DNA of 64,000 bases from Candidatus Omnitrophota bacterium. GTDB lineage: Bacteria > Omnitrophota > Gorgyraeia > Gygaellales > Profunditerraquicolaceae. Location of the stretch: the NCBI GenBank assembly GCA_041651115.1, contig JBAZJY010000004.1, forward strand, positions 14,114 to 78,113. Direction: 5' to 3'. The stretch's first letter is position 1, and the number at the start of each line of letters is the position of its first letter. The translations under genes and the position numbers were made by a program. Of the stretch, positions 3,401-46,612 are shown in pieces. The notes under the pieces were generated by a model, which saw nothing but the letters and a program-made list of their open reading frames with translations, was not told the origin of the DNA and searched no databases.

Positions 3401-6400
3401 TGGATCTGGCCCGCTTGGAAAAAGAAAGGGGTTTGGGTTATTGGTGGCCCATAGCCGATATTATTTTCTTAAAAGGCCATGCAAATTATATGACTGTCAG
3501 GCCGTTTATGCCTGTCACGGATTGCGTGTTTGTCGGCAAGGTAAAGTGGTCGCCTGAATTGAATAAAGGCGGGACAGTGAATTACGAAGACGGGGATTAT
3601 TTTGTGGAATATGTCCCTGCCAGCTCGCCTGTGAAGGAAGCTTATGAATGGGCGAGAAAATATGTTCAGGAATACCAACATAAAACAGAAAATAATGGAT
3701 CTTTTGATGGACTATATGGTAATCCCGAAAAGAAAAGAGCAGAGCTTTTGAGGCTTATAGAAAAACTCAAGAGCATAGGTAATGAAACACTTCGGAATGA
3801 GTTTAAGAATGAACTTTATAATGACATCATAAGCTCGCCGATGCAAATTGCCAAAAAGCCTTACTGCGCGGTATTCATTCCGGAATTTTCCGGCAGAAGC
3901 GCGATTATGGAAATGGTAGCGCAGGAAGTTAAATGGCAGAATATGTCATTGGTAAAATTGTGGGCTGACCATATGCGCTTTAGAATAGCGAATGGAAATA
4001 AAGACGAATTAAGCCTTAAGGAATTTTGTAATTTACCGCTCAAGGCCTATCTGGAAAATCTGTCCGTAAATAAAGGCCTTTTGGCAGGCCTGTCTTTCTT
4101 GAGCCATTATGATTCTTATATTTTCTATCATACTATGCAGCAGGCGGGTTTTGAGCTTAAGGCCGCGTTCTTTATTGATTTAAAAGAGGAAGATATTTGG
4201 AAACGCTATAATAAGAAATTATTGTCCAGCACCAGCGGCAGCGCTCATATAAACAGAGCAACTTTAGAACGGAGAATAGATAATTTTAAATATTTTTCGC
4301 TTCCGGAGAAAAAGAAACTGGAAAAAGCCGGGATAAAAGTAATTAATATTGAAGGTTTATTCAGCCGTAAAATAATAGTAGATAAAATTATCTCCGGGGT
4401 CAGGTCCGTCTCCAGCTCGCCTCTTGGATGCCGCGTATGTATCACAGGCCAACAGATAAGAAGGCTGCAGCCTGTCCTGAAGAATGTCCCCTCTGCAGTA
4501 AATTCCGGAATTAAATTAGTTATTTTTGACAACGGCAATGTAATAATGAATTTTAATTTTAGGCGGGCTGTGCAGGAACTTTCGCGGCGCTTTGCAGTAG
4601 AGCCGGGAGTCGTATCGGATTTTATAAGAAATGTTGATTGCGATAGCGGAAATCCGGTTACTAGATACGGCTCCAGGGAAATATCCAGAGAGCAATTAGT
4701 AGCTGCATTTAATCCGTGGCTGCGGAAACACAGCCGCTCGGCAGACGTGAGACAGGGCAGGAAAGTATTAAGCGTAGCCGAATTCACTGATATATGGAAC
4801 AGTATTTGGACAAGCATGAATGTAAGGGTCGTTATGCTGATGTATAGATTAAGGCAGCAGGGGTATAAAGTCCACGTACTTTCCAACTTATCCGAGCTGC
4901 ATTATGAATATGCTTCCGAAATCTATACCAGGTATCATGTTTTAGATGATTTCAAAAAAGATTTTTACTATAAGAAATACTGGAAAACTCAACCGGAAAG
5001 CTATCGTGAAGTGCTCAATGATGCAAATATGCTCCCCGGAGATACGTTGCTCATTGATGATTTGCCGCGTAACATAGAAGTAGCGCGAGCAGCCGGCCTG
5101 CATACATATTTATTCAATAAATATAATTCCCGGAATATACGCGATATCGTAAATATATTAGGAATATTTTCCAGCTCGCCGATTACTATTTTGGAACTGC
5201 AGCAGGCAGCGGAAAGGAACGCGCAACAGCCTTATGTCGGAGCGGCTTTACGCAGGTTAGCGGATATCGTCTTTAAAGTAAAAGCCCTTGGCGTAATCTT
5301 ACTCAAAAGCGGGTGGCTATTCAAAGAGCAACGGTTGAAGTTTAGCCCTGCCGATCTAGAGCGGCATCTGGGCCTGTTTTCTGACTCGGATAGGGTTTTT
5401 GTGTCTAAACTTAAAGACGGTTACGTCCTAACCAACAATAAATACTTGAGACCAGTACTTAAGGAGTGGGGCATACGTAAAGAAGAAATTAATTGGTTTA
5501 TCGGCCATTACCGCAAGGACAATATCGGAGAGATCGTACGTCAGCTTAAATATGAATATCCGGCCTGCCTTACTAAATTAGCAGGCCTTATTATGAACTG
5601 GAACCTTACGGTTTATTCGCTTTTCTTTAAACGTTCTGACTTACAAAGGGAAGGCCTGCCGGTTGATACCTTAGCCGAAGGACTTAAGCGGCTGATGAAT
5701 GATATTAACAGCGGAATAGAGGATTTTACCGGATTGGTTCCGCAGAACGCCATAGACCAGGTGAACAAAGCGGTAAAAAACCTAGAACCTGCCCTTTTGG
5801 CTTTAGAAGCAAACAAGAAGCCGGAATTTAACCTTCTTGAGTTGACTGTCTGTACTCAATTTGTTTCCGCGCTCCTGAACGTATTCAAGGAACAGAAGCG
5901 CCTGTTGGCTGAAAAGATAAAAAGCGACCGCGGAACGAATCGTTATTCCTTTGAGGCGCGCTATTTTTCTGTCTTGCAGCAGGGCTATGCCAGCGTGGGC
6001 CTCTGGGGCATCCAGGTGCTTTCCGACAGTCCTAAAAAGTATGATAATTTATTTGAATTTTTCCGTTCTATTGACCACCAGATAGATTCTGAACTGGATG
6101 ATATTGATCTTTTTGAAACAGTTAACCTACTGATCCGGCAGGTCCAGGAAGGCCTGGATAAGGAGGCTTTTGTTAAAGGCATGGATTCTCTATCCGGCAG
6201 CCTTAAGAAAGTCAAGGATCCCTATAAGATTATGGCGGCTATCCTGTTGGGCTATGCAAAGGGCTTGTTAGAGATTAACCGGCTTAAACAGGGGACTGGG
6301 CTTTTCGAATTTGCCCAGGAGATGCTGACTTTGAGAGTTAAAAACTGCTGGGGTATCATCAATACCCTTGACGGCGCCTGGGCTGAGGGGCTGCGCGGCC

Positions 6401-9400
6401 ACATCAAGAAGCGTAATGATTATCTTAAAGGTAAAACAATAAAGATCCTGCATGACTTAAAATTCAGGCATTATAAATTCGCCCGTAAGGTTCTGAAAGA
6501 GGATATTATAGACGAAGCGCATTTATCCTTTATCCGCGATCCAGAATTTGCTATGTTTGAAAAGCCCTTTGCACTATTAAATAAATCTTTTTATGAAGAT
6601 AGCACATTGAACAAACTTGAAATTGCGCGGGCGCACCAGTTATTCTCTCTTTTCTTTGATATGGTAATTATTAGTGAGTTGCGAGGTAAATTTATGATGG
6701 ATTACCGTAGGCTATTTGTGAATTCCCGTAAGCCCGGAGAAGCCCGTCTTTCCAGACAAGAAGCATTTAAGCAAACATATTTTAAATACCGCGATTCTTC
6801 CAGGGCGGTATTATCCAGGCCGGAGTTTTATTTTTATCTATTCTGGCAGGCGGCCTTTATCCCGGTGCATACTAAAGAAGATGATAAGCCGGTTAATCCC
6901 GTATTTTCAGCCCTGAACAGGTATGTCTTATCCGGCCAGATTAAAGAAAAAAGATATAGTAGGCTTACCCGGCCGGAAATGCCGAAATTAAGCGAAACGC
7001 AAGCAGCAGAATTTTCCGCAATAGGCGAGCTTTATAAGGAATGGTCGCAGGAGTATGGGATTACCAGGGCCGGGCCGCAAGCCAGCTCGCCGCTTGATTC
7101 TTTGGATTTCCCCGTGGTTATCATCGGCTCGTCAGACGGCGGGAAAGAAGCGATCCCCGCCATTTTAAATCCTGTTTTGAACAGCAAGCCCGATTTGGGT
7201 TTCAGCTGCATTCTTGCCGCCCATAATTTTAATACCAACTACTATCCTTATAAAAAGATCTCAAGAATAATATTGCAGAATATAGCAGATACCATCCAGG
7301 CAGACGTTACTGAAATATCCGATGGTATGCCGGTAGAAAATAACAGGATATATATTGTCCCTCCGATAAGCAATATTTCGCTTAGCAAGGAAGGAAAATT
7401 TGAAGTTTCCGGGATAAGGATTGATTTTATTAAACGCAATCCCAGTAAGAACATCATTAACATTGATTTCTTACTGGATAGCGCAGCCGAGTTCTTCCGA
7501 GATAGGCTGATTGCGGTTATAGCCAGCGGAAACGGCAGCGATGGCAGCAGAGGGTGTTCTTATGTGAAGCTTTATGGAGGCAAGATTTGGGCACAGCGCG
7601 ATGCGATAGAAAAGGCCATGCCTACCAGTGCCCTCAAAACATGCCTGGTTGATGAAATAAAGTTATCCAGTTCTCCGCTAAAAGCAAAAAACGCGATCTT
7701 CTGGTTATTTTTCGCAGCAATGATCACCTTAGCCTTTAAGCAGGCAAGGGCGCAGGAATGGAGCGCTTATCTTTTGGATAGTAACCATAAAGCCAGGGTA
7801 AGAAGCCTTAACTTGACTCACAGCGACATTGCCATAAGCGTGGCTCGGCTTTGGTCAGCGCAGACAGATATTACAACCGTTGATATACAAGACAGCAAGA
7901 AAAAGTATCACATTAATTACATGAAATATGCGGATGCGCTCCAAAAGATAGAAGAAGATCTTGCTGCCGGGAAGAAATTGATCGTAAATATGAATTTCGG
8001 CTCTTACCTTGATTTTTATTCTTTTGAGCATGCCATTTTGGACCTCTACCTTAAATATCCGCATACCTTAATCCTGGTTGCTCCCGCAGGTAACGGTAAT
8101 ACCGATTATCCGATGTATCCGGCAGCCTATGATTTTGTCTTTTCAGTTACCAGTGTTACGGCTGGCTCCGGCTGCTATGTTAAGACAGGCTATGGTAATT
8201 ATGGCGCTTTCGTGGACATAGCTGCCATTGCGCAATCAGAAGAAGGAATGAGCAAGAAAGAGAAACAATATATGCAAGCAACCTGTTTTGCCGCGCCGCA
8301 GGTCGTGGGATTGCTGCTTGAAATATTCGCCGTCAATCCCGTTTTAACTAAAGAAGAAGCCGTAAGGATCATCCAGGATACCGCTGATCCGATAGAAGGT
8401 TACGATTTTAAAGTAATGAATCCTGAGCGCGCTATTAACGAAGTTAAAGCAAGGCTGCTTGCCGCCAGCTCGCCGGTTGTTAGGTATGGCAGCCAAATTA
8501 CGGAATGCCGATTATTGAGAGAAGAGGAAGCAAGGAGCAGGCTTAAACAAGAATTTAATTTTGATTATCCGCTTGATTTAATGAAAACAAATAGGCCTGG
8601 CGGAGCAGCGCCTCGCCTAGCTTCAAATATTTATGCAAAATTAAGCGCCGTAGAGAAGGAATTTCCCGGTTTTAAAGTACCGAAAAAATGGCTCGGGTAT
8701 AACATTAGCAGGATTATTAATAATACAAAACGCAAACTGCAAGAACAGGTAGATAAGCCAAGGCGAGAACAAGAAGCGGTATTAAGGCTTAAGGCAGAAC
8801 TTGGTTTTATTTATCCGGACTCATTAAAACCAAGTGACAGACCAGGGGGGAGTAACTCTATTTCTGCTTCAAAAGTTTATGAAAAGCTAAGCGCTGTAGA
8901 AAAAGAGTTTCCCGGTTTCAAGGTACCTGCAAAATGGATCGGAAAATGGGATGTTTCAACTCTTGTAGAGAGAGTAAGAGACAGGATGTCAATAAAGGGC
9001 AAAGATGCAGTTAAGAGATTAAAGGACGCATTTGATTTTAATTATCCTGTTGATTTAGTGCCTACTCATCGTCATTATTTTAGCGCCACAGTTATTTATA
9101 TAAAATTTCTTGAAGTTAACAGCGAATTGCCTGGATGTAAGATATATAAGTCACTATTGAATTTATCTTCGGAGGCGATCATTTTTAAGTTATCTGCGAA
9201 TATGGCGGGAAAAACTTATGATAAGAAAATTGAATATATTAAATTACTCAATAAGGTATTCGGTTTCGCCTATGAAGAATTATCGCCTCGTATCAGGGCT
9301 GAATTTAAGCCAAGAACGATATTCCGTCGCCTTGTTTATATAGAAAAACGGTTATTAAAAGAGCCTGCCCTGAGAATACTCGGGATCAGATGGAAGAACA

Positions 9401-12400
9401 TACCATATAAGGTTATCTTTAAGAGATCCGCAGATGCCGATTTGCAGGATTATCTTGACGGATTGGCCGCGGGCAAGTTCACCCCTGTATCAACAAGCAA
9501 GGGGATAATAAGGTTCAAGATAAACATCAGCGAAGAAGAGGCAATAAAGAGGATTGCGGATGAATTTGGTTATATCTATCCATATAGCTTTCCTGTGAGG
9601 ATTTGGCCGGGCCAGAAGCGTTATTCGCCGCCTAGTAGTATCTATACTAAGTTAACGAAAATAAGAAAAATGTCTCCGGATTCTGAAATTTCCCTTTGGC
9701 TGCTTGAATATGGCCTGGATACTGCTATCAATAAAATCAAAGGTATAAATGACCGTAAAGCCGCAGCGCTAGAGTCGCGAGAACGCAAAAAAGCGCTGAT
9801 AGAACAATTTAAATTAGGTAAACGCTATTTTTCGCATTCTTTAGAAAAGGTAGCATATAAATCTTCGCTTCAGAATGAAAAAGAACAAAGAAAAGCGGAA
9901 AACAATAGGCAGAAATTAGAAAAAAAGAAGGCCAGGGAAGAAGCTAAAGAGGGAGCCAGGATAAAGAGAATGCTAATTATTAAAAAATACAACCTGCCCA
10001 TTTCATATTCTAACCGCAGCCTTGCTTTTATTGAAAAGCGGGTCCAAGAGTTAAAGGACAAAGAGTATAATTCTGCAAGTTATGAGAACTATGTAAATAA
10101 AATAATGCATAGATATTATCCCGGCCGCAATATAGACATAGAAATGCTTTGGCAAAAGATGAAGCAAGGAGAAGGAATGGCAAGAAAGACCATTATCGAA
10201 TACGTGCTTAATCTTGTTATAGAGATAGAACAAGGCAATAAAAGTAGGAAAGAGATCTTGAGGTCTGTGTATAAACTTCCTTCGCATAAACAGTATACCC
10301 GCGACGATTATATACAGGAAGGAAATTTGGCCGCGCTTCAGGCGTTGGATAAATGGAATCCTGCTTGGGGAATGAGCCTTGAATCATTCCTTAGGGATGA
10401 GATAGGGTCTGCGGTTAAGAGGTCTAGGGCGACAAAAATTAGAGATGACAAAAGGGCTATCTCCCTTCAACAACCCAAGGGTAATAAATCTAATAGCGGA
10501 AATTTTCGCACCGTAGAAGACCATCTTGCTAATCCGGATGATGAGCAGTATTTGCCTGGACCGGCTGAAAGGTTTGAGTTTATGTCTAAAAAGATACGCA
10601 GTAATGATTTCTTATTTCTTGCCGAGGCCGGATACCCTATTAACAAGGGTTTACTTATCAGCAATGAAGAAAAAAAAGCTTTTGCTAAAGCCTTCAACAA
10701 CCATCTAATAAACAGCGGAATGTTTAAAGATACTCCTTTTGATATTGCTGTATTGATCATCGGCAGTATGGGCAATATTGGGATCGCCCGCAGGAAAATA
10801 AATCCCAGCGACTTAAATCTTATTGTTCTTTCAGACGTTCATCAAAGTCAGTCTATAGATATACATCGCAGGCAGTGTCGGGAGGTAATGGCTAGGTTCA
10901 AAGACTGGATCGGAAGCGGTGATATCTATCATATGACTGAAGGCGGCGAAAGATTTACGCTTCAGGTAGAAAAGGATAGCACCGTTGAGTCTTCCAAATT
11001 GCTGTCATTGCTTCAAAGCTATGGCTTAAAGAGTAAGGTATCACTTGAATTAATTCCTCTTGACGGCAATATTAACGTTGTCAACAGGGCAGCTTGTCGC
11101 AGCCATATCCAAATAATGGAATACTTCTACCAACTAGGCGCAAACGGCATCCTTATTTTTGAGTCTAAAGAAGGATTTGCGGAAAATATACTGGATAAGC
11201 TATCAAAAGGTCTTGAAGCTGACGCCGTTGCATACGAACCGATTGCCGCCAAGTATATGCTGGATTTCTGCCTGAGGCAGATTGATAAGGTCGTCCGTCA
11301 GCAGGAAGCCGCGGTTGTCCAAGGCAGCTCGCCTCTCGGCTGCGTCGTGGCAACAAGGAGCAGCGCCTTTAATGTTCTTGCTAGCTCGCCGGTTGAGCGT
11401 TCCCGGCCGCAGAAGATGAGCCTCAACGCGTTCTTGGAGCGGGAAAACAACGAGTTATTAAAAAAATCCGTTAAGCCTTTAAGCAGGCTTAGATGGTCGG
11501 TAAGGGCGGTTGACTGGATATTCGCGTTTGTAAAATACCCGTTACTGTCCAGCGCTTCTCTGGGAACTTTGCTGCATAGCTTAGGAAAACTTGACCTCAC
11601 GATTTTTGGCAGCCATATCGGTTGGAAAATGGTCATCGGAGTTATCGGCAGCGCCTTGTTTATCGTTACGGTAAGACTGGCGCAGGTTTTTATCTTTAAA
11701 TATTTTTATCCTGAAGTTTCTCTTCCCAAATGGCGGCGCTTTATTCTTCCGCTGATAATGCCTGCTCCTATAGGCGGAGAATGGCTTATGTTCAGGATAT
11801 TAAGTCCGTTATCTGATGTAAAGGAAATGAAACTGCTGCGGGATATAGAATATTCTCTGCAAAATATTATTTATAGATCAGGGAAATCATTCTCCGCGCG
11901 GATAGAAGAATTATCTGAGGGATGCGTCCCGGAGATCGCCAGAAAAATACTGGATTATGGAAAATCAAGCATCGGGGAAGATTATCTCAAGCGCGCAAAT
12001 CGCAGATTGATCAGCAGTAGAAAATATATCTTGAAGCTTTTGAAGAGCAATTTCTCGGAAGACCCCAGGGTAAGGAAAGAATCACATTCTGATTTTATTA
12101 TAAAACTACCTACCGGATTTTCTCCGGAGATGGAGCGACAACTAGAGGCGTTCAGGAAAGAACATGAAAAAAACAGCGGAGAAGCCAGTTCGCCTGCCAT
12201 ATACGAAACTGACGACGGCTACCGGGTATATACGTTAGCCCTCAATCATAATTCCTATGTTTCTATAGCGGAATTAGGCGCTAATATCGTAGACCTGGTA
12301 ATCGCAGGCAAGCGCATAGTCTGGCACAAAGGCTTTGACCCTGCCGCAGGAAGAGTCACGCGTTTAAAAGATCCGGTTACCGGAGCTAATCTTCCCGGCG

Positions 12401-15400
12401 GCATACCTTTTATGTTCCCTTGGACCAGCCGCATTGATAAATCGCTAGCGTGCTTTTTTGGCAGAGCGATTGATCTTACTGATCCGAGCCTGACATTAGT
12501 GCGCCGCGTCCCGGATGCCAAAACCGGGCCGAATGTACTGCACGGGATGACCGATAAAGTAAAATGGCTTAATGAAAAAGTGCATCCGGAATTTATCAAA
12601 TTCTCCTGTTTTACGGGCGCATTCAATGAAATATCCAGCCGCTTCGGCTTGCTTAAGGCCGAGCTTGTTTTTCGTCTGGAGAAAAATACGCTTACGGTAC
12701 ATACAACCGTAGCCAATAAAGACACAAAATTACTTATTTTTAGCTTTGGCCATCACCCATTTTACTTTCTGCCCGATATCCGGCAATGGCAGGCGCAGGT
12801 CCCGGCAGAGATGTATTGGCAGACAGATGCGGCGCAAGTCCCGCTTTACCAGCAGCCGCTCGCAGTAGAAGGCCCTACTGACTTGCGTAAGCTTACTTCT
12901 ATAGACCGGCCGTTTGAACAGGGCTATACCGGGCTTAGAGTTGATAAGGGAGTAATAACTTCGTATTTCCATAATGATAATACCAAAGAAACTTTAACCG
13001 TTTCTCAAGGCTCGGGGTATACAAACCTAATGTTTTGGGTACCCTTAGGTAATCCTAATATTCCTGAAGGAGTAGCCAGTATCCAGCCGCTGGTTTCCGT
13101 AGCTAACGCTATTAATCTCTTTAGTCATGCCAGGCAATGCCGGGATCCTGTAATTGCTAAATATGCCAATCCGGTTATTCTCTTCCCGGGTGAGCAGATC
13201 AGTGTATGGTGGAGAGTAAGTCTTGACGCCGCTATCAGTTCACCGGTAACAGAAAGAAAAATCCTGTTGGCAAAAAGGGAAGAACGTAAAAGAAAAGAGT
13301 TATATAAGGAAATGGAAGCCAGGGGAATAGATATAGATGTTCCTCCCAGCCTGATTAGGCACCACAGTGTTACTACCGTCATTAAAAGATTAGAGAAGGA
13401 GATGGCAGCCGGTATCGAGAAAGAGAATAGAAGGAAATTAATCGCCAATCAGGCAAAAAAAGAACTCGAAGAGAGTCACGGGATTGTTTTGCCTGCCGGG
13501 TGCCTGCGCAGAGGCAAGAACTACGTTGATCCGGTAAAATTACTTAATAAAATAAAAGGAATAAAAACAGAGCTAAAACGCAGGGGCATTATTAAATATA
13601 CCATTACCAAGAAGCAGCTTTTCAATAATAATGCCGAACGCATAGTAGAGATCATCCAGGCGCGCTCCGCAGCAGGCAAATACCAATCGTCGTATCGCAA
13701 GGAATCCGTAAGCAATAAAAGGATTAAGGTGCGAAAATTTACCGAGGCAGAATACGCAGCCAAGCTTATTGATGATTTTCAGTTTGATTATGGAAATTCA
13801 AAAAAGATAAGCTTGGCCTCAAATCTGTATATAGCTTTGAGTAAAGTAAGAGAAGTTTTTCCTGATTTAAGAAGAGAAGAGCTTCCGGAAGGATCAATCT
13901 GGTACGGCCAAGCTAAAATCGTAGACGCAATTTCCAAGAAAAGAAATGCCCGGGAAAGGGGGAGCAAGAGAGAAGACGCTGAAGCAGCATACCAGAAGAA
14001 ACTCTCAGAAGAGTTCAATTTTATGTATCCGGATGGGCTGCCTGAAAGTAATCAGCCGGGCAACGGCCACTGTATAAGTGCTTATAAGGCGTACAGGGCT
14101 TTAATAAAGGTAAAAAGCCTACTGCAGGAAGCGGGATTTGAATTACCCGATGTAAACACATTTACATATATGTTGGGATGTACCCCGGAGTTTATCAGCA
14201 ACAGCTTAATAAAGACGCTCAAATTCAGGGAAAATAAAGCAGCCGAAGAAGAGAAGAATTCAGAGGCCAGGGAAAAGCTTTTTATTGATTTTGAGTTTAA
14301 CTATCCGCAAGATTTAGGGCATTTTGGCAGCGGGTATCCTGTTATTTCCGCATCGCGGTTATGCGCCAATCTTATAAAAGTAAAAAAAGAATTACCTGAT
14401 TTTAATTGGAAAAACCTCCCGTTAAAAGTGCTTATCAGGTATCCCTCAAAGATCATCATTTACCTGAAGTCAGTGCAGCAAAAGAAAGACCGGCAAGAAG
14501 CTGTGCGAATAAGCCTGAATAGGGACTTTGATATAACTAACCCCGAAACATTAAAGATTACTGCTTCCAAGGCGCGCAGTAATTTACTCGCCATTAAGCG
14601 GATATTAAAAAAGCGAAGACTGGCTCATCTACAAGTGCCGAAAAATATGCTTTCGCTTGCTCCGGCTACAGCCGCCAAATTGATCAGGGCGCAAGAATTG
14701 AGGAGGAGAGAAAGAAAGATGGCCGGGATTGCGTTGAAAGCGGAAAAACAAAAACTGATCAATGAACATCAATTACCCAAGGCCTACTTTTTACGCAGTA
14801 TATCTTTTATAAAAGAGATGATCAAACACGGGCCGCCGCGCCTGGATGCCTGTTATGGCGGTTATAACCGTTATGTCAATTATATCTTCAGTCATCCGTC
14901 TAAAGTTGAGGAAATGGAATTAGAGCTTCTTTGGCAAAAGATGAAAAAAGGCAACAACTCGGCATATTGCAAGTTGGCGGAATACTTCCTGCCGGTAGTG
15001 ATTGAAATGGTAGAGGGAGAAACCAAAAAAGGTATTCTGTCGCGGCCATCCAATTATTCGGAAGAACACCAGAAGGAAATGGACGATTATGTCGGCGAAG
15101 CCAATTTAGCTATGCTGGAAAGCATAAAAGAATGGGAACCTGGTCCAGGCAGCACGCTTGAAGCTTTTGTAAAAGAAAAGATCAAGGCTGCGGTCAATAA
15201 GTTAAGGTCTAAGAAATATGCCGAGAAAAGACGGAACGACGATAATATAGATTCGGCAAGGCGGCAGATTTTAGAATTTTCATCCCAGGATTACAGTCAG
15301 CATCCGGATAATGCCTTAGAGCGTTTTGAGATGATGAAAAAGGTAGTAGCGAGCATAAAGAAAGGTAATTTCGGCTTTCTGGCTGATGCCGGCTACCCTA

Positions 15401-18400
15401 TAAACCAGAAAGCGCTCTTTAGCCTTACGGATAAACTATCTATTAAGCAGGAACTGCGTAATTATCTCATCCGCAGCGGGATATTCAGCGCTATGCCGCT
15501 CAGGTTTGCGATGTGGATGATTGCCAGTATGGGCCAGATCGGGCTTGCGCGTAAGAACTTAAGCGACCTTAATCTCCTCATCATCTCTGATTCGCATCAG
15601 GAATCCTCTATGAACGAACATCAGGCCATTTGCCGTGAATCCATGGTTAATCTTAAAGAGCTCGTTGGAACCGGCAAACTCATTGAACAGAGGATAGATG
15701 GTAAAAGGCTGGTATTGGAAGTCGGAAAGGATAATTCTTATAAGAATAATAAACTTTATCAATCTGAATTTATATCTTTACTTAAAGACCATAAGATAGG
15801 AAGCCAGGAACGCGGGTTCGCTTCCATAGAGCTGGTTTCTTTGAACGGCAGTATTGAGCCCGGCAATAAAGCTCTATACCGCGGCGGTTTCCATGTCGCA
15901 GAAAACATCTATCAGATGGGTTCAAACGGGATCCTTATTTTAGAATCGGAAGACGGCGTTGCCCAGGAAATGGCCCAGGGGCTGCATCAGCAGTTACAGG
16001 CCGATCATAATGAATATCTCTATTTTATATGCAATTACCAGCTGGATTTCTTTGCCAAGCAAGTAGAAAAAGTAAGGCAGCAACAGGATGCGTTAATCGC
16101 GGCAAGCAGCTCGCCGGCAGATATCAGCAAGGCATACATTAAATATTTAGAGAATCCCCAAGCCATGATTGACGAAGATAAAACCCTGGTCCTTGCCTTT
16201 TGCCATAACAACACGGATATGGACGGTATGGCTTCCCTCATCGGACATGTTTATTATTGCCGGGAGATTGAAAGTAAGGATATCCTCATAATGCCGGTTA
16301 TCCCCCAGCAAGGGGCGCTTCCGTGGAATATAGTGCATATTTTGCAGCGCGGCGGGATCAATAAAGATGACTTCTTTTGTTTTGAAGACATAAAAAGTCA
16401 TCTTGAGAACATCGCAGCCAATCCCGCATTCATGGAACGCATATTGCTTGACCTGCTTGACCATAATGACCCGGAAGAAAAAAGCCTGGAGCAATTTGCA
16501 ATCCGCAATATCATTGACCACCATTCCCTGGAAAGGGAATTACCTTATAGGGGAGTACGCAATATCCAAAGGATAGGGGCAACTGCCACGGCCGTTACAA
16601 TGAATTATTTTAACCGCGGGATAGCTATGCCGTATGGCATAGCTTATATCCTGCTTGCCGCCATCTGCCTGGATACGGACAGTTTTTGTTCCAATACCGT
16701 AACCCGCAGGGACGGCAAGGTGGTCCAGGAATTGGCGCGCCTGGCTAAAATAGACGCAAATAAGCTGTTTGACGGCGTTTCAACAATTTCATATTGCACG
16801 CGCGCCTCTACCTGGGGAGAATGGCTTTATGACGTTAAAGAATACGGGGCGTTGATTTTCAGGCAAACAAAAATAAACGATATGGATGAATTAAAGAGCA
16901 TTACCAGGAGCATGATCATCAGCCATATCAAAGAGGAAGTGGAGAGCCGCCCTGAGATTCGCGCTCAAGTCTGGATGGTAACAAGCATGGATCAGAAATC
17001 GTACGGCAGCATGGTTTTTGTATATGCTAAGTCCGGAGTAGAATATGGCAACAGGATCATCAGGGCGATATCGGATTTAGAAATAACAAAGGCAGGCCTG
17101 GTTGAGGCGTTATGGATGAAGCCGGCCTTGAAAATGATCCAGGCGGGGATAAAAAAGGCAGACTTCAGATATATCGTGAATGTATCCGGAATGGGCCTTA
17201 GCGCCGATAACGGAAGGCTTAAGGCGTTCAGGCAGCTTGCCGCATCTTTGATCAAAAAGAACCATTTATCATTGAAAAATAACGGCCAGTTGAATATAAA
17301 AATTAATTCCCATCGCATCGCAAAAATCCTTTTAAAGTCCCTTTCGCAAGACGGTATAAAACTTGATTTATCTACGATTATGCGGATGCAACGCGATATT
17401 GACGGGGTCGTTATGCTTTATTTTTCCGGCTGCGGCTCGCGCAAGATGTGGAAGGATGCCGTGCAGGAAGTCATAAAAGAAACCATAAATAAGACGAGCT
17501 CGCCGGTGGCTGCGGAGATGTATTGGCTGCGGGATGCGGTATGGGTGATGGGCGGAGAAACTCTCTCTGCCTTGTTTAACGATAATAAGGAAACCTTTAA
17601 AAAGATATATGCGGTGGTAATTGCCTGGTGGCTTCAGGGGGTGCTTGCTTATGCGCTGGCTCGTATTTTTGGCGGGGATATCTTCACTGCCTGGGGCATA
17701 TTCCTGGCCGGGCATATGTTAGATTTCGTCCTGAATATTCTTCGTTCCAAGGGAGCCCGCGCGCCGCCGCTTAATATGCTTATCGCCGCTTTAATCGCAT
17801 CTGTCAGCCTGGCTATGGGTTGGTCAACGATCAATCTCTTATCCTGGGCTGTACAGGCAGGAGTTGCCCTTTTCTTCCTATCTCTTTCCTTAGTGTCTTC
17901 TTCAGTATGGCGCCGCCGCACGGTTGTTCTATTCAGCCTTATTCTCGTTTTAGCCTCTGTAAAAATCATTGATAATTCATTGCGTTATTACCGTATGGAC
18001 GATGAAGCAAAGGCCATAGCGCACAGTTATTCACTTCCAATAATACCGCAGGAGCAACACGGAACATACTGGCAGGATGAATTTAACAACATGGATCAAC
18101 TGCTTGATTTTATTTCCGACCCCGAGGTTATCAATGTTCCTTCTTTTGAGGCGCGCGAGCAGGCTTATCTGGCAAAGGTAAGGCTACTGGTGAACGCCCA
18201 AACCGTCTTTGCCGCGGATAAAATATATGCAGGGCAGCGATTGGGGCAGCTCGCAGCTAACTATCAGGAAATAGTTTCATTACCTGATACGGCATTCTGG
18301 TTTCGCTGCAGCGAAGCAGAAATGTTGACCGTGCTTTTACGCAACCGTATGGATGTTGCCTCTCGCCAATTATTATCAGCAGACGTGGATAAATTATTTT

Positions 18401-24400: not shown

Positions 24401-27400
24401 AATATAACCCTACTGGAAATGAAAAAACTTCTGTTAGGATGAGCGGGAAGATCCTGGTTAAAGAATTCACCAGTTTATTTGATACGGCTGATGCCGCAGT
24501 TTTTTTTGAGATTCTTGAGTCCGGATATTATCTGGGCTCACTCGGGGAAAGAGGCTTTATTTGCCAGGAGAGGCCTTTATATTATGAAGATGACCTGCTG
24601 TTCAGCGTTGAACAAGACAAACAGGACCGTAGTATTTTTACTCTTCAATTGCGCCTGCCTAATGGCGGCCGAATTAGTTCCCCGCTTTCTTTTGGGGCAG
24701 CGGCGCTTATATTCTGGTGTGCCTGTACGGCGATGGTGGTCCTTATTATTAATATTTCTTGTAACAATCCCCGTAAAGAAGCCAGAGTTCCGATACAGCC
24801 GGTAAAGAAAAAAGATGATGTTGAAGAGGCGCCGGCATTAGCTGCGGCAATATTCATCCTGGAAGGAGTTATTGCTGACACTAAACGGCTATACCGTAAA
24901 GCCTGGGAAGAGATGCTGGGTAAAAAAAGGGCAGGCTTGGTTACGGGGCTTAGCGACACAAAAATATCCGATGTTTATTCTAAGATCGCCCAGATTAAAA
25001 TACTGAATATTAATATTGATGATATGGAGTTCCTTTGCAGATTAGATAATTTAATTGATGAGAGAAGGTCTTGGGTTAAGCCTTACCAAGACGCTGTGGA
25101 TTTAATCAGGGATTTTAAAATCAGAAAGGTCAAATGCGGGGTGGCTTCGGAGGGAGGCTCGGCGCATAAAATACTGGAAAAACTCAAGGTTGCAAAGTTT
25201 ATAAATACAACCGTTACTGCCCGGGAGACTCTTCGTCCAGATTTGGTCCTGGCTGCTGCCAGAGAAATGGAGGCGCCTTTTGAAAAGACAGTAGTCATCA
25301 GTGATAATCCCATAGACATCCATGCAGGCAGAAAATACGGCTTTGGGCTTTTAGTCGGTGTTAACCGCAAGGGAATTTTTTACAAGAAGACGTTTTTGCG
25401 CAGCGGCGCAGACCTGGTCCTTAACGATCTTTCTTCCATGTCCACCATCAGCCTCGGCTATGAATTGAACCATAAGGTTAAGGCGGATAAATCCCGCCGT
25501 ATAGTTAGCTCACCGATTAGAAATTATAACCGCAGGGATTTTATCGGTTTATCTGTTATGGGCGCTTTAGGATTTATATTTGGAAGGCAGATGCGCGCTG
25601 CGGGTTATGGCCTTAAGGAAGAGATGTTCAGCTTGCCCAACCAGAAGAAGACCTACCTTTCTTATTTAAGCAAGCTGGCTTTTAAACAGTTAGATTTTGG
25701 CAGCGATGATGATTTTAACCGGCTGCAGTCATGGAGAATAGATCAGGAAAAATTATACAACTCCTATTTTATGTCCAATGCTCCAGAACCCGTAAGGCAA
25801 AGCATAAAAAATCTATCCTGGTTTTTCCCGGAAAATAACCCCGGTTATTATTCTGAGAAATCATATCAGCCGGGCACCGACCACCAGGCTTACGATATAT
25901 TTATTGATGAGAATATGCCGATTTCAGCTTTTTGCGGCGGTGTAGTCGTCACCGCCCTTGATGGCTGGCGTTATGAAAACAAAATATGGGTTGAAGGTAC
26001 TGGCCTTGGACAGAGGGCAGGCAATGGCGTCCTTATATATAATCCCATTATTAAAAGCTATACCTATTATGCGCACTTGAACAGGATAGATGTCGCGGCC
26101 GGAGATATAATTAACGCTTCATTCCCGATAGGCTTGATAGGTCAGACCGGGATCAATGCCCGCAGGAAACAGCCGCATCTACATTTTGAATATAAAGCAA
26201 TGCGGGGCAGGAAGCTGGTCTCCTTACGGTTTAATGAAATAGACGGAGCCGGTTTTACATCTGCTTTTAGAATCGGCAGCTCGCCGGTGGTATTCAAGTT
26301 TATGCCGCAGAAATCCTTAAAGAGCGGAGAGAAAGTTCATCTGGCCGGCGATTTTAATAATTGGAATCCCGATGAGTATAAGATGGTCTTTAATCCTGAT
26401 GATGGCCTGTGGGAGAAATCACTGGATATAGCCCCGGGAATTTACGAATATAAATATTTTATAGACGGACAATGGATTTCTTATCCCGAAGATATTTTTA
26501 ATCCTCGCAGGATAGAACTGGACTGGCATAAGAATTACTGGATAGAGGTAAGCGCTCAGCTTGATGAGCAAGAGGAGCCAGGCGCATATTTTGACCGCCG
26601 GGAACTGGGAATACCCCAAGAATATAGCAAAGAAGGGAATCTTTGGGGATTTTTTAACGAGCGGATGTTCGACAGTGGAATCGGCCACCCGCTTCATAAA
26701 TTTGGTTTATCCAAAGCGAAGGTTTGTGTTGATGCGGGATGTGGGACAGGTTATCAATTCATGCATATAATCAGGTGGTTTTGTCCCGAGACTCTTTACG
26801 CCGTAGAACTGGATAAGACGCGCCTTAAACAGGCAGAGCGCTGGCGTAAGTGGAGCAGCAAAACGAAAATGGTATTTCTGAATAAAGATATTTCCAGGTC
26901 ATTCCTGCCTAAGGGTGTTTTAGCCGATTTAATTATCTGTTCCCACGTTATTCAGCATGTCCCTACAGATATTGCCCTGGGGATCATTAAGACATTAGTT
27001 AATTCATTGCGCCCGCGGGGGATCCTGGTTATTTTAGCCGCGCATTCAACCAGCAGGCAGGATAATTATGTAGTGACATTTCCCGGCAAATCGTTTGCTT
27101 ATTTTACGCTGCCCGGAGTTAGTGAAGAATTTTTTAATCAGGTTGTCAGCAGTAAAATTGACAACTCAGGAATGCTTCCCACGCACCGGTTTCCTTATTT
27201 TTCTCTTAAAGGAATGTTTGAACAGACCGGTTTGGAAGTGTTATCTTTCGATACATACCATAGCGAAGGCCAATACGGGACACCTTCTGAACATAGGTTC
27301 GTTTATGGGATTGACCGATGGAGTAATGAAGAAAAGGATGCGCACGGTATGGATCTGGTGATGATCGGCAAAAAAATATCCAGCTCGCCGGTTAATCTTA

Positions 27401-29721
27401 AGGGTATCCGGGCCGTTTCTGGAAAATATGTCCAGGCGGTGTTTAACCTGTCTGAGGATAATTCTTTTGTATGGCCGTATTGGCGCAACAATAATCTTTT
27501 CGCATTATTTTTCGCCAGACTGTATTTCCCGAGAGAGAACCAAAAAGAAATCTTGGATGCGGCAATATCCGGCAAAAATAACTGCGCGTACAGCCTGGTT
27601 GGTTTTAAGGATGCCAGGTTTGAATTGATTTTGCCCCTGGCAATTTGCACGTCCGGGAAGAACCGGGCTCAAGAAAAATGGGTGAGTTTGCCCAATCGTC
27701 TTAGCATAGAGTGTGAGCGTGCCGCTTCTCTTCAGGCATGGTACCATCTTAATAATCTGGATATCGTCAACGGAATAACTCCGCCTTCATTTTTTCATGC
27801 GCGCGAATTCAGTATTTTCCCGTGCGCCGCGCAGGTAGAAGAGTCAGCCAAGAACGGCAGCGGAAAATTGATGATCCGTTTCCCCCATCTGAACACCGGC
27901 AGCTCTTTTATTAAAACCAGCTCGCCGGCAGGAGAAAATAAAAAAAGCATACCTTCAGCTTCATTGTTAGCGCAGGTTTTGCGTGATGCCGAATTAGCGG
28001 AACGTTTGTTAAGAGAAGGCAAATACTGGAAGGATGATGTTAAAGCGATAATAACGGCATTGGATTCGATTATTTCCAATCTAAACAAACTGAAGAAACT
28101 TGATTCAGCCTATAGCCTTAAAGAAGAAATCGCAAGGTTAGCTCGCGGGCAGTTAAGGAATCCCGGCGTTCCCGCCCAGCGCATCCGCAACGCAATAGCT
28201 GAAATGGTCAGCAGGATATCCAGCTCGCCGGCGGAAAATAGTGATCAAGGTTTTATAGAATACCTTAAAAAGCTTTATAGTTACAGCAAGCACGTCAGCG
28301 TAGAACTTATTGATGGCCGACACTACCTTCAGATAAGACATCCGGATATCTGTCCGAATATGAGATTTACTCATATGTATAAAAGCATACTCCATTTATT
28401 CGGCGACAAGGAAAAATATCTTCAGCAGGTAGCCAGTTTCTTCCTGTGCAGATACTATTTTGGAAAAGGATTCCGTATCGGCCTGGACGTAGTAAAAAAA
28501 TGGACAGAGACCAAGGACATTAATTCAGTAGAGACTAAGAGCTTTAAAGAAGGGGAAGAACATTCCTTACTGTTATGGACTTATATTGTCAGCAGCCCGG
28601 TTATGACAACCGGCGCCAGGGTGAGGACGCAGCTGGAGCAAAAAAGAGCGCTAGTATTATCCTCCCTGTTTTTAATATTCTTTTCTTTCTTCTTATTTTT
28701 CGTATCGGTTCCGGCGGCTCAAGCTCAACAGGCCAATATGCCTTCATCGGCTGCTGTAAAAATAGAAGCCGAGACCGTTAAGAGCCTGTCAGAGTCATTA
28801 AAGACAAGCGGTATCGGCATTAAGATAGTTTTTTCTATAGATGAATGGAAGGAAATCTGCGAAGATAAAAATTTAGATAGACCAGCAGCGTTTTACGACA
28901 GGCAGGAAGCATTGCTATATTTTTTTAGAGGGTATTATTGTCCGTTTACATTTTCCCATGAAATTACGCATGCCTTGAAGGATAAGTATTTTGGACAGTT
29001 AGAAGAAGATATATTTTTAAATACTGCCGATTCTTTGGGGCTACTGATTTTAAAAACCAAAGATTGGCAACTTATAGACATTTTTTCCAATATGTATGTC
29101 TATTATGCTTGCGATTATGATAATCCCGTTAAAGATGTTTGGTTTCAATATAATTTTATAGATAAAATGGCCCCGAGCAGTTTTTCCAACGCCGGGCAAG
29201 AGTTGAACAGGGTATTCGCTACGGAATTATCATTTGAGCAGGTTGGCTATATTTTAAACAGCGATGAATTGATGCTTAATAATTTACTGATAAGTTTTAC
29301 GGCCGTAGTTAATCATGCCTTTGATGAAATATTTGCCGGTATTTATAGCATATCTTTGGACATGGAGGGCCGGGGAGGAAAATTTTCTTTAACAAAAGAA
29401 GAATTTGATAAGTTTTTCGGCAAGCCCCTTGAATATCCATATAAAGATAGGATAGATTACAATAATGAAATAAGAAAATTTATTATCAGTATACAGAAAT
29501 ACCCGGGAATTAAAAAGTTCTTAAACAACTATTTTATTCGGTTGGGCTTACCGGCACGACAGGGCTTTCAAGTATTCAGTTCCCCGCTCAATATTCCTTC
29601 ATTAGGTGCCAGGGTGAATACGCAGCTTGAGCAATGGCTGTTGGGTAATGAAACTCTGGGCTTAAGAAGAAAATTTTGGAGCGGTATTTTTAGCGGTATT
29701 TTAGGCGGTATAAACCCGTAG
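1..29721 (+). CDS. Giant modular multidomain protein, 5'-partial. Frame 1 is open from nucleotide 1. The ORF caller's start at 157 is an internal GTG. At least 9,907 codons lie in the window. The stop codon is TAG at 29719-29721.
   Basis: The six-frame track shows one 9,854-aa ORF. I translated positions 1-156 in frame 1 and found no stop. The other five frames contain only short ORFs. Recognisable domains are listed as separate entries below. Confidence 0.7.
   Translation, partial: [9906 protein letters not shown]
1282..1460 (+). other. HD domain resembling the (p)ppGpp hydrolase domain of RelA/SpoT
   Basis: [51 protein letters not shown] matches the RelA/SpoT HD signature (HP..VA...L...aaLLHDvvEDt...I...FG..va.lV). 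Confidence 0.5.
3070..3540 (+). other. Possible DUF89 or ARMT1-like metal-dependent phosphatase domain
   Basis: [22 protein letters not shown]... is a DNAGE-type motif, and a ...KGHANYMTV... segment lies downstream. The similarity is weak. Confidence 0.2.
4414..5172 (+). other. HAD-superfamily hydrolase-like module 1
   Basis: The C-terminal HAD motif IV, [25 protein letters not shown], is present. Motif I reads IFDNGNV and lacks the second Asp. Confidence 0.45.
7084..7668 (+). other. CheB-type methylesterase-like module
   Basis: [18 protein letters not shown]...IYIVPP...[16 protein letters not shown]...GGKIWAQRD resembles the CheB catalytic-domain signatures (vvaIGaStGGpeAL ... GMGsDGa...Gg.tiAQd). 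Confidence 0.5.
7930..8466 (+). other. Subtilisin (peptidase S8)-like C-terminal half with the catalytic Ser replaced by Cys
   Basis: LIVNMNFGS...[28 protein letters not shown]...[19 protein letters not shown]. The subtilisin 'GTSMAAP' signature appears as ATCFAAP. I found no HGTHV-type His motif upstream. This module starts with the signal-peptide-like stretch [27 protein letters not shown]. Confidence 0.45.
8540..9700 (+). repeat. Protein-level repeat array A, with motif (E/D)FxFxYPxxL...PG....IS/SA..Y.KL..V.KEFP.FK.P..W. There are at least 4 copies.
   Basis: [18 protein letters not shown]...[40 protein letters not shown]...[32 protein letters not shown]... and [10 protein letters not shown]... 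Confidence 0.55.
9840..9990 (+). other. Lys/Glu-rich low-complexity or coiled-coil linker
   Basis: [32 protein letters not shown]. Confidence 0.4.
10130..10450 (+). other. Sigma-70 region-2-like segment A
   Basis: [32 protein letters not shown]...[40 protein letters not shown] matches the sigma-70 region 2 pattern (dLvQEGnlGLi.AvekFdp..G..FstYA...Ir.ai.r). Confidence 0.45.
12187..13236 (+). other. Aldose-1-epimerase (galactose mutarotase-fold) like module
   Basis: [35 protein letters not shown]...[10 protein letters not shown]...LHGM...[10 protein letters not shown]. This is the Gly-His-His-Pro-[FY]-[FY] motif typical of the YeaD/YihR epimerase-like family. Confidence 0.45.
13760..14460 (+). 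repeat. Protein-level repeat array B, of the same FxFxYP family as array A
   Basis: [67 protein letters not shown] and [41 protein letters not shown]. Confidence 0.5.
14920..15230 (+). other. Sigma-70 region-2-like segment B, a paralogue of segment A
   Basis: [34 protein letters not shown]...[44 protein letters not shown]. It is followed by a domain paralogous to 10700-11325 ([32 protein letters not shown]... versus [36 protein letters not shown]...). Confidence 0.45.
16108..17496 (+). other. DHH-family phosphoesterase-like module, of the NrnA or RecJ-like DHH fold
   Basis: [24 protein letters not shown]... and a DHH motif in NIIDHHSLE, ...ICLDTDSF. Confidence 0.45.
17497..18000 (+). other. 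Multi-pass hydrophobic (transmembrane-like) stretch inside the giant protein
   Basis: [21 protein letters not shown]...[12 protein letters not shown]...[14 protein letters not shown]...[13 protein letters not shown]. These are 4-5 hydrophobic helices. Confidence 0.4.
19447..20895 (+). other. Possible ATP-grasp module resembling glutathionylspermidine synthase or the circularly permuted type
   Basis: Similarity is weak: ...[17 protein letters not shown]...YIFAEHIQP...[24 protein letters not shown]... Confidence 0.25.
21592..22350 (+). other. Ribulose-phosphate 3-epimerase-like TIM-barrel module
   Basis: [15 protein letters not shown] (compare RPE 'laPSiLsaDf')...[10 protein letters not shown]...[11 protein letters not shown]...[10 protein letters not shown]...IQADGGVN. 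Confidence 0.45.
22440..22640 (+). other. Degenerate partial RpiB-like segment. The conserved His-Asn is retained and the Cys is replaced.
   Basis: [51 protein letters not shown] compared with the RpiB pattern iCGTGiGmsiaANKvpGiRAA...HNdaNvL. Confidence 0.3.
22768..23100 (+). other. Ribose-5-phosphate isomerase B or LacAB-like module
   Basis: [34 protein letters not shown]...[47 protein letters not shown]. The position of the RpiB His-Asn reads Glu-Leu. Confidence 0.55.
24676..25506 (+). other. HAD-like module 2, of the beta-phosphoglucomutase type, with a substituted nucleophile motif. It is preceded by a lipoprotein-like hydrophobic N-terminus.
   Basis: Motif I 'FDxDGV' appears as [13 protein letters not shown], with D changed to I and D changed to E. 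The C-terminus reads [18 protein letters not shown]. The module starts [26 protein letters not shown]. Confidence 0.4.
25507..26277 (+). other. M23 (LytM-type) metallopeptidase module with a Tat-like signal peptide at its own N-terminus
   Basis: Immediately after the SSP junction the sequence reads [23 protein letters not shown], a twin-arginine RRxF motif followed by an h-region. The M23 motifs are [10 protein letters not shown] (HxxxD) and [19 protein letters not shown] (HxH). Confidence 0.55.
26278..26500 (+). other. CBM48 or AMPK-beta glycogen-binding-domain-like module
   Basis: [69 protein letters not shown]. Confidence 0.5.
26700..27100 (+). other. Class I SAM-dependent methyltransferase module
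   Basis: Motif I is [12 protein letters not shown]. The post-I acidic residue is in AVELDK, and motif IV-like LRPRGILVI is present. Confidence 0.55.
28591..29577 (+). other. Module carrying its own Sec-type signal peptide followed by an HExxH zincin-like motif
   Basis: [30 protein letters not shown] has an n/h/c-region and an AxA cleavage site, at about 28640-28735. Downstream is ...[16 protein letters not shown], with the HExxH motif at 28956-28970. Confidence 0.45.
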
Positions 29722-45981: not shown

Positions 45982-46612
45982 TTTAGGGACGGTTCTCAAC
46001 TCAAAGCTAAAGTGTCCCCTAAAAAGAGAACAAATTGTCTAAAAGTTTATTGTTCTCAGCTCTAAATTTGTAACTGCTCCAAGGGTATTGGCTCACATAA
46101 GATACTAATGAAGCTCTTACCGGGTTGCCCTCTATATAGTCGATACATTCCAAGAGATAGCTGTCTTTTTCAATAACCTTACTCTTAAATCTATCCTGCC
46201 AAAGGTGTCCAATCTTTTTGTTCTTATTATTAAAATAGAGAGTGTAACTTAAGTTTATTCCTCTCATAATTTTATTTAGTTTAATGGGGTTGCTTACTTC
46301 TATAATAAGATGGATGTGGTTAGGCATCAGGCAGAAAGCAAAGAGCCGAAATTTATGTTTATCTTTGTATTTTTTTAATATAGATAAATATACTTCGTAA
46401 TCCGTCGAATTGATAAAAACCAATTGTTTCTGGTTTCCCCTTGTGATAATATGGTAACAAGCATTTTCTATCGTAACTCTTGCCGTTCTAGGCATATCAA
46501 TCACCTCCTAACTAATAGACGAATAAAGAGTAATTTTCTAACAATAAATATACACATTTTTTTGAAGCGGAGGGGACACTTTAGCTTCAGCTTAAGAACC
46601 GTCCCTAAACTA
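45982..46612 (-). mobile_element. IS200/IS605-family (RAYT-like) insertion sequence. Its HUH Y1 transposase is flanked by inverted about-45-bp hairpin-forming ends.
   Basis: The left end is tttagggacggttctcaactcaaagctaaagtgtcccctaaaaag. The right end is ggggacactttagcttcagcttaagaaccgtccctaaa and is the reverse complement of the left end. The element lies exactly between the nrdJ stop and the mnmG start. Confidence 0.65.
46019..46504 (-). CDS. tnpA: IS200-like HUH tyrosine (Y1) transposase TnpA, REP-associated transposase-like
   Basis: YHIITRGN...CLMPNHIHLIIE (HuH)...GHLWQDRF...YIEGNPVRASLV...YPWSSY. A GGAGGTGA ribosome-binding site precedes the ATG on the minus strand. Confidence 0.8.
   Translation of the reverse strand: MIDMPRTARVTIENACYHIITRGNQKQLVFINSTDYEVYLSILKKYKDKHKFRLFAFCLMPNHIHLIIEVSNPIKLNKIMRGINLSYTLYFNNKNKKIGHLWQDRFKSKVIEKDSYLLECIDYIEGNPVRASLVSYVSQYPWSSYKFRAENNKLLDNLFSF

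Follow-up and report, generated by a model that had tools for sequence, protein, structure and literature searches.

A giant open reading frame (ORF) in which some 30 gene-sized modules follow one another in a single frame, with the tripeptide Ser-Ser-Pro (SSP) at every boundary, fills the first part of a 64,000-nucleotide stretch of a Candidatus Omnitrophota genome (the window; positions 14,114 to 78,113 of the forward strand of contig JBAZJY010000004.1, assembly GCA_041651115.1). One of these modules, at 25516-26286, is by its sequence a whole member of a subfamily of M23 peptidoglycan endopeptidases whose free-standing members have leaders of the twin-arginine translocation (Tat) type. It starts with a leader derived from such signals, placed directly behind a junction in the depth of the chain. 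We consider it somewhat probable that the polyprotein is cut at or near this junction, releasing an exportable M23 pre-protein. All features of the giant ORF are on the plus strand, and positions are those of the window.

The ORF covers positions 1 to 29721 (9,906 codons), which are only its 3' part. An automatic list of ORFs had it start at 157, but there is no stop codon in 1-156 and the frame is open from the first base. The same locus is found on an ENA contig (ERZ27247363:k141_2001242), where the gene is called at 23,923 amino acids (aa) and still runs off the contig end. The ORF is thus at least 71.8 kb long, its last 29.7 kb being the first 29.7 kb of the window, and no base differs between the two records in the 21,350 compared (20530-41879 of the window). 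Within the window, at least 8,505 residues of the ORF precede the M23 leader. Counting back 1,401 codons from the stop to the start of the module, in a protein called at 23,923 aa or more, puts it at about residue 22,500 or beyond, and the figure of 8,400 residues given in a preliminary description made from the sequence alone has to be corrected accordingly.

The M23 module, its leader and its relatives

Directly after the SSP at 25507 the frame reads IRNYNRRDFIGLSVMGALGFIFGRQ, and we could confirm the export-type leader that had been described there. This leader, IRNYNRRDFIGLSVMGALGFIFGRQMRAAG (25516-25605), consists of an n-region with two arginines, a hydrophobic h-region and a basic c-region. 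The arginine pair is encoded at 25531-25536, 5 residues behind the junction, within a motif that reads N-R-R-D-F-I-G, i.e., the RR of Tat signals with F at +2 and I at +3. The Ser or Thr of the consensus before RR is missing, as is the Lys after the motif. The h-region, FIGLSVMGALGFIFG (25540-25584), is an uncharged, Gly-rich stretch of 15 residues followed by R-Q-M-R; it has the makeup of a Tat-type signal, in which about 12-20 weakly hydrophobic, uncharged residues precede a basic residue of the c-region. Among the 9,906 aa of the ORF within the window, this is the only RRx[FL]h motif with a subsequent hydrophobic stretch.

The leader is followed by a catalytic domain of the M23 (LytM) type at 25879-26199. 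Module residues 122-228 match the Pfam profile PF01551 with 51.9 bits (cutoff, 28.7; E = 9e-14), and LytM itself (PDB 2b0p) matches the module with E = 4.7e-7. Both motifs reported earlier are intact: HxxxD as HQAYD at 25882-25896 (module residues 123-127), and HxH as HLH at 26176-26184 (residues 221-223), the start of HLHFE at 26176-26190. The residues H123, D127, H221 and H223 are invariant in an alignment of six sequences and correspond in position to the zinc and catalytic residues of LytM.

The preliminary description had suggested looking for stand-alone homologues carrying the same leader, and these exist. A HMMER search among 1.84 billion representative proteins gave 724 relatives of the M23 module, and about 30 of the best 150 are proteins of ~270-390 aa whose first 60 residues include a motif of the S/T-RR-x-F-L-K type and an uncharged stretch. 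P0001 (282 aa, ..YSRRDFIKKLGLAGVAILGA; SRRDFI) and P0002 (356 aa, ..MSRRNFLSKTALLTAGMFLG; SRRNFL), which are separately called genes on their contigs, have the RR in the same alignment column as NRRDFI of the window, and a longer relative, P0058 (636 aa), has the N terminus MISRRGFLKGVG. Three of these proteins pass the Tat profile TIGR01409 (cutoff, 16.7 bits): P0001 with 20.6, P0049 with 25.1 and P0058 with 27.9 bits. The free-standing, Tat-exported M23 proteins (P0001, P0049 and P0058) and the embedded module have the same N-terminal extension, the same HxxxD and HxH motifs and an RR-x-F-[IL] leader at the same position. They differ in that the former are separate genes of ~270-640 aa with a start codon, whereas the embedded unit has no start codon and an SSP at both ends, and in that the embedded leader is below the thresholds of the Tat profiles.

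P0004 (47% identity within the matched region; 42-47%, or ~42% overall), the nearest of all the relatives, turned out to be a fragment of a second polyprotein. A single frame is open along the whole of its contig (L004; 2,612 bp). The M23 module is again enclosed by two junctions, the upstream one reading ..MQSSSP and followed by VDISAGHLNMSRRVFIAMFISAL.., the downstream one reading ..KRGASSP and followed by VEHT, after which come three more SSP. Right after the SSSP, the module reads ..NMSRRVFIAMFISAL, with an SRRVFI leader in the same column and an h-region of 10 residues. The other modules of L004 resemble nothing in the window. What is conserved between the two polyproteins is hence a unit made of junction, leader, M23 domain and junction, whose neighbors are free to differ. 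The preservation of RR-x-F-I in two polyproteins that are ~42% identical overall and have no other module in common points to selection on the leader. The L004 contig (NCBI GCA_050257155.1, JBLMWI010000133.1, 1-2612) is deposited in a metagenome-assembled genome (MAG) labelled "Deltaproteobacteria bacterium," a binning that may be wrong, the contig being short. The sole product annotated on it at NCBI is a partial M23 peptidase of 740 aa that begins with an internal Met, despite the frame being open across the contig.

Between the leader and the catalytic domain, the closest homologues share an N-terminal extension (25606-25878 in the window) with motifs such as W-R-x-x-Q-E-K, and this region has invariant columns between the window and L004. 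In P0004, P0005 and P0006 the homology begins at query residues 48-65. The extension is predicted to be helical with low confidence, and the AlphaFold model, based on a four-sequence alignment, had a mean pLDDT (predicted local distance difference test) score of 41, too poor for a fold search.

Junctions and modules of the giant ORF

The part of the ORF within the window has 29 SSP tripeptides where its composition predicts 2.1. The 29 ordinary genes downstream (10,426 aa) have a single one, and the density in the giant ORF is 2.9 per 1000 aa versus 0.3 per 1000 aa in the M23 homologues. The junctions span 454-29586, with first bases at 454, 1909, 2485, 3622, 3832, 4414, 5173, 7084, 7669, 8467, 11326, 11383, 12187, 13237, 16108, 17497, 19447, 20896, 21592, 23218, 24127, 24676, 25507, 26278, 27382, 27919, 28222, 28591 and 29578. 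All 29 copies fit the consensus [ASGIT]-S-S-P-[VLAIM]. The M23 module is delimited by the junction directly 5' of it (25507-25515; AGC TCA CCG) and by the one at its end (26278-26286; AGC TCG CCG), which precedes a module with CBM48 and an S-adenosylmethionine (SAM) methyltransferase.

The junctions are also conserved at the DNA level, and more narrowly than the amino acids require. The first serine is encoded by AGY in 29/29 cases (41% in the background), the second by TCN in 28/29, with TCG alone in 20/29 (10% in the background), and the proline by CCG in 24/29 (45% in the background). The two serine codon families thus come in a fixed order, with AGY ahead of TCN, and drift is seen at third positions. 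There are 15 copies of the exact nonamer AGCTCGCCG, all of them in the frame of the ORF, and none elsewhere in the window on either strand. Such narrow codon use suggests either that the junctions were copied from each other or that codon identity itself is important. The conservation is confined to about nucleotides -2 to +11. Inside the large modules we saw no convincing decayed junction: five in-frame nonamers are within two mismatches of AGCTCGCCG, fewer than in the other two frames, and none of them encodes SSP or resembles a junction.

Several ways in which such a short element could act were considered and rejected. Folding energies at the junctions are the same as at random positions of the ORF and a scan of the window gave no match in Rfam, which speaks against an RNA element or structure. 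Reassignment of a sense codon to stop is excluded as AGC, TCG and CCG also occur in the ORF away from the junctions (of its 76 TCG codons, 20 are at junctions). Internal translation starts are not supported either: Shine-Dalgarno-like sequences precede 3/29 junctions, versus 21% in the background and 13/29 for real genes, and the first codons after the junctions are mostly GTN, CTN, GCN or ATY, most of which are not start codons.

When the ORF is split at SSP, it gives 30 pieces, and scanning each of them singly showed Pfam families that change from one module to the next. They include HD, an ARMT1-like phosphatase, HAD (twice), a CheB methylesterase, an S8 subtilase-like protein, aldose 1-epimerase, DHH, a circularly permuted ATP-grasp, Rpe fused to RpiB, M23, and the CBM48 with SAM methyltransferase; at least 15 different families are present in the part of the ORF within the window, and none is a dominant repeat. 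These modules resemble genes. Their median length is 272 aa, against 291 aa for neighboring genes, and the Pfam matches span essentially whole profiles and end a few residues inside the junctions. For example, the CheB profile is matched from 1 to 164 of its 174 positions on residues 9-189 of a 195-aa module, the HAD profile is matched over its entire length (1-191/191), and the RpiB match stops at position 531 of 542. In P0157, a free-standing Rpe-RpiB protein, the N terminus is 7-8 residues past the aligned junction. Several complete and functionally unrelated proteins are therefore found in one reading frame, with a short conserved motif at every boundary between them, as in polyproteins.

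Hydrophobic segments are also placed with respect to the junctions, since 7 of the 14 lie at most 40 aa after one (permutation p = 0.004). Two leaders quoted in the preliminary description, besides that of the M23 module, are indeed present. The S8 subtilase-like module (7669-8475 with its junction) opens with a Sec-type leader, LKAKNAIFWLFFAAMITLAFKQARA before QE, at 7678-7752; it has a Cys at the position of the catalytic Ser (ATCFAAP at 8278-8298, versus GTSMASP in subtilisins), and its Asp/His region does not align. The HAD-family module that precedes M23 (24676-25515, from junction to junction) opens with LSFGAAALIFWCACTAMVVLIINISC, in which a hydrophobic segment of 21 residues (24685-24762) is followed by a stretch rich in R and K. 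A basic n-region is lacking in this leader, whose overall appearance is that of an N-out membrane anchor and not of a cleavable signal. The same HAD module has FILEGV at 24847-24882 in place of the usual DxD nucleophile motif, as read by eye, and may be catalytically inactive. A further Sec-type leader (28600-28725), ending in VSVPAAQA before QQ, is found in the module at 28591-29586, which carries the HExxH motif HEITH at 28957-28971. Apart from one weak sub-threshold match, it could not be assigned to a Pfam family, nor did its sequence match any in the PDB, and it may be a secreted metalloprotease.

Some modules stand apart. Two paralogous modules of ~955 aa (8476-11334 and 13246-16116) have C-terminal halves that are 34% identical, and internal repeats are present. 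One of the pair has a weak match to Sigma70_r2, and the 953-aa paralogous module had no homologue among 5.8 billion proteins in a word-indexed search. Sequence searches of the PDB with three modules (two without a Pfam family and one with a weak sub-threshold match) returned nothing useful. A "module" of only 19 residues, LGCVVATRSSAFNVLASSP, is enclosed by the junctions at 11326 and 11383 (11326-11391). It starts with LGC like the HAD module at 4423, whose junction with these residues is at 4414-4431, so that SSPLGC occurs twice, and it could be what is left of a module that was deleted. The last 44 residues of the ORF, after the final junction (29587-29718), recapitulate the opening of the module before them (GARVxTQLEQ, found at both 28612 and 29605), and the ORF stops there as if after a truncated duplicate module.

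One chain or many products?

How could an M23 domain in the middle of such a chain reach its substrate? In the mechanism that we favor, a site-specific protease would cut the chain at or next to the SSP junctions, and the leader of the M23 module, which is not N-terminal as encoded, would become so by this cut. The resulting pre-protein of ~250 aa would then be exported post-translationally. Tat would be the natural route, because it takes finished proteins, and Sec would be possible. Once exported, the M23 domain would act on peptidoglycan, either that of its own cell or that of a prey. We infer cutting indirectly, because the tripeptide is kept 29 times without decayed copies, because the modules are gene-like, because the topology of an uncut chain fails (see below) and because internal initiation is unlikely; the exact bond that would be cut, the export route and the substrate are the other conditional parts of this proposal.

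Several observations weigh against it and should be kept in mind. We recognized no junction-specific protease among the modules of the window, and the only protease-like ones (the S8-like module with its Cys, the HExxH module and M23) carry export leaders themselves; the protease might be encoded in the at least 14,000 residues of the gene upstream of the window. No tat genes (tatA, tatC) are found among the genes of the window. The Tat profiles TIGR01409 and PF10518 gave no match, even at E <= 10, to the M23 module of the window, to its 40-aa leader or to the leader in L004, and no canonical AxA site is apparent after the h-region, where only ..MRAAG.. follows, with no small residue at -3. 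Hence, of the "complete Tat-type" signal described earlier, the RR motif and the h-region stand, while the profile match is missing and a clear AxA site is not apparent, and the embedded leaders are better called Tat-derived than textbook Tat signals. From the failed profiles, the leader could also be decaying. As to generality, only one other junction-bearing fragment (L004) was found across our searches, so that it is based on two loci: genome contigs gave ordinary M23 genes only, mostly cyanobacterial, metagenome contigs gave one free-standing M23 and no junction-bearing polyprotein, viral contigs gave no match, and the proteins matched by the Rpe-RpiB module were all free-standing, either ordinary or fused.

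Could the chain function without ever being cut? It would then be a single membrane-anchored polypeptide in which the leaders are internal signal-anchors or transmembrane (TM) segments and SSP is a favored linker between domains, a possibility that we judge rather unlikely. Internal signal-anchors and internal Tat signals do exist, e.g., in the Streptomyces Rieske protein Sco2149. In this protein and in P0109, as in the giant ORF, the RR motif and hydrophobic stretch are away from the N terminus. The ordinary M23 homologues P0109 (motif at residue 575 of 942) and P0075 (residue 190 of 476) have it hundreds of residues in, and for this reason the earlier statement that an export signal so far inside a protein is non-functional as such was slightly overstated. 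Yet proteins of the Sco2149 type have a single cytoplasmic or membrane domain upstream of the signal, whereas the giant ORF has >22,000 residues of unrelated enzymes upstream and cytoplasmic-type enzymes downstream without an intervening TM segment. The topology is also a difficulty for an uncut chain. There is no hydrophobic segment between M23 and the SAM methyltransferase that follows it, nor between the S8-like module and the following sigma-70-like one. With the HAD TM segment and the M23 leader in series, M23 would be brought back into the cytoplasm. The positive charges of the HAD segment are on its C-terminal side, a pattern that would suit an N-out anchor with a short free N terminus, not one preceded by at least 8,000 residues. 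In addition, we judge the h-regions of 15 (window) and 10 (L004) residues to be rather short for a stable TM helix, which weighs against these leaders being ordinary TM helices, the outcome that the preliminary description had named as contrary to its proposal. Finally, a mere linker would not be expected to stay fixed to one tripeptide 29 times without decayed in-frame variants. Still, a single membrane-anchored chain is the published reading of the giant proteins of Omnitrophota (bioRxiv 10.64898/2026.06.07.730766), and this counts against cleavage and in favor of an intact chain.

It is also conceivable, but distinctly unlikely in our opinion, that the leader is a fossil: the module would have been captured from the gene of a Tat-exported M23 protein, the leader would now be dead, and M23 would act with the whole protein or not at all. 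This would account for the failure of both embedded leaders with the Tat profiles that free-standing homologues pass, and for the very short h-region in L004. It fits poorly with the RR-x-F-I shared by two polyproteins so diverged in sequence and content, with the four intact catalytic and zinc residues, and with the good Sec-type leaders, complete with AxA sites, that other modules have kept. A more exotic option is that the products are separated during translation, without a protease, at a bacterial "stop-carry-on" site like the NPG/P of viral 2A, dependent on the AGY-TCG-CCG codons or their tRNAs. The narrow codon choice at the junctions, the obligatory Pro, as in 2A, and our failure to find a junction protease would all agree with it. 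However, only ~5 residues are conserved, with no upstream nascent-chain motif, there is no signal of RNA structure, and 2 of the 5 SSP in L004 use TCN-AGC. The fixed order of AGY and TCN with drifting third positions is equally explained by the common descent of the junctions, since a switch between AGY and TCN takes two substitutions via a non-serine codon. We know of no "stop-carry-on" mechanism of the 2A type in bacteria and regard this option as very improbable. The least credible explanation, to which we give a nearly negligible chance, is that mis-assembly or sequencing errors fused separate genes, the sequence being metagenome-derived. The ORF is open over 29.7 kb here and over 71.8 kb on the ENA contig, in two records that agree where compared, its coding domains all keep to a single frame, the junction is an in-frame nonamer of fixed sequence and not a set of random indels, and giant ORFs are documented in complete genomes of Omnitrophota.

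A broader proposal can also be made, which we hold tentatively, at slightly less than an even chance: the giant "multi-enzyme" ORFs of Omnitrophota would be cellular polyproteins, in which dozens of ordinary cytoplasmic, membrane and exported proteins are synthesized as a single chain that is split at a universal [small]-S-S-P-[aliphatic] site, the junctions being homologous to one another and the modules being shuffled between polyproteins at them. In the most radical version of this proposal, the separation would depend on codons and take place on the ribosome without a protease.

Genomic setting and relation to known systems

The giant ORF is flanked by ordinary chromosome genes, encoding PilZ, a sugar ABC transporter, glycoside hydrolases, ROK, LacI, ribonucleotide reductase, mnmG and pst/pho. 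Neighboring proteins (NCBI MFA5157336.1, MFA5157347.1 and MFA5157349.1) carry the name "MAG: Candidatus Omnitrophota bacterium." A gene for an IS200-like Y1 transposase (46019-46504, minus strand; PF01797 on the matching ENA contig) lies between those of ribonucleotide reductase and mnmG, and is among the few minus-strand genes in the stretches with gene calls. The window and the ENA contig (L066) are identical up to 56398 and diverge from 56399, inside two tandem paralogues of an ABC ATPase (pstB-like). The ENA contig ends ~1.1 kb past 56398, and this is probably an assembly break induced by the repeat.

Giant ORFs of this kind have been described before. West-Roberts et al. (2023; bioRxiv 10.1101/2023.11.21.568195) reported giant ORFs of the "Archaeovorin" type and suspected processing by C39 or S8 domains, with cleavage-point information absent. 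The more recent preprint (bioRxiv 10.64898/2026.06.07.730766) defined a "multi-enzyme metabolic cluster" class that includes sugar-phosphate enzymes, methyltransferases, HAD hydrolases and peptidases, gave the example of a protein of 147,155 aa with 147 predicted TM helices, and suppressed signal-peptide calls on later chunks of the proteins as artefacts of chunking. The ORF studied here belongs with this class: it has the same phylum label, exceeds 20 kb, is covered by numerous Pfam families that are unrelated to one another, none being a dominant repeat, and has scattered TM helices. In contrast, no junction motif, module structure or polyprotein reading is described for the published ORFs. 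The words polyprotein, linker, junction and SSP are absent from both texts, and our search for literature on Omnitrophota mentioning a polyprotein or cleavage site found nothing relevant, nor did the accession numbers lead to any pertinent paper. Hence, giant ORFs as such were already known, while the junction, the module structure and the leaders directly behind junctions appear to be new.

The closest parallels are perhaps the polyproteins of viruses such as picornaviruses, potyviruses, flaviviruses and nidoviruses, in which complete, differing proteins are likewise encoded in one ORF and a short conserved motif separates them. Flavivirus polyproteins even have internal signal sequences ahead of their exported parts. 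Unlike them, the giant ORF is on a cellular chromosome, beside mnmG, ribonucleotide reductase and pst/pho, and is tens of times longer; it has no recognized cognate protease, its cleavage is only proposed, and the export signal is of a post-translational, Tat-derived type.

These results bear on a question that dates from the first description of the giant genes of 20 to >400 kb that are common in Omnitrophota: do they make a single chain or cut products? The junctions are the first concrete candidate cleavage sites for these giant bacterial proteins, and the junction rule predicts the exact peptide termini to be sought in proteomes. It also provides a rule for splitting giant ORFs before their annotation or the prediction of topology and structure. 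A polyprotein would explain how an M23 hydrolase placed between cytoplasmic enzymes could reach the peptidoglycan, and would point to a virus-like strategy of expression in a cellular organism.

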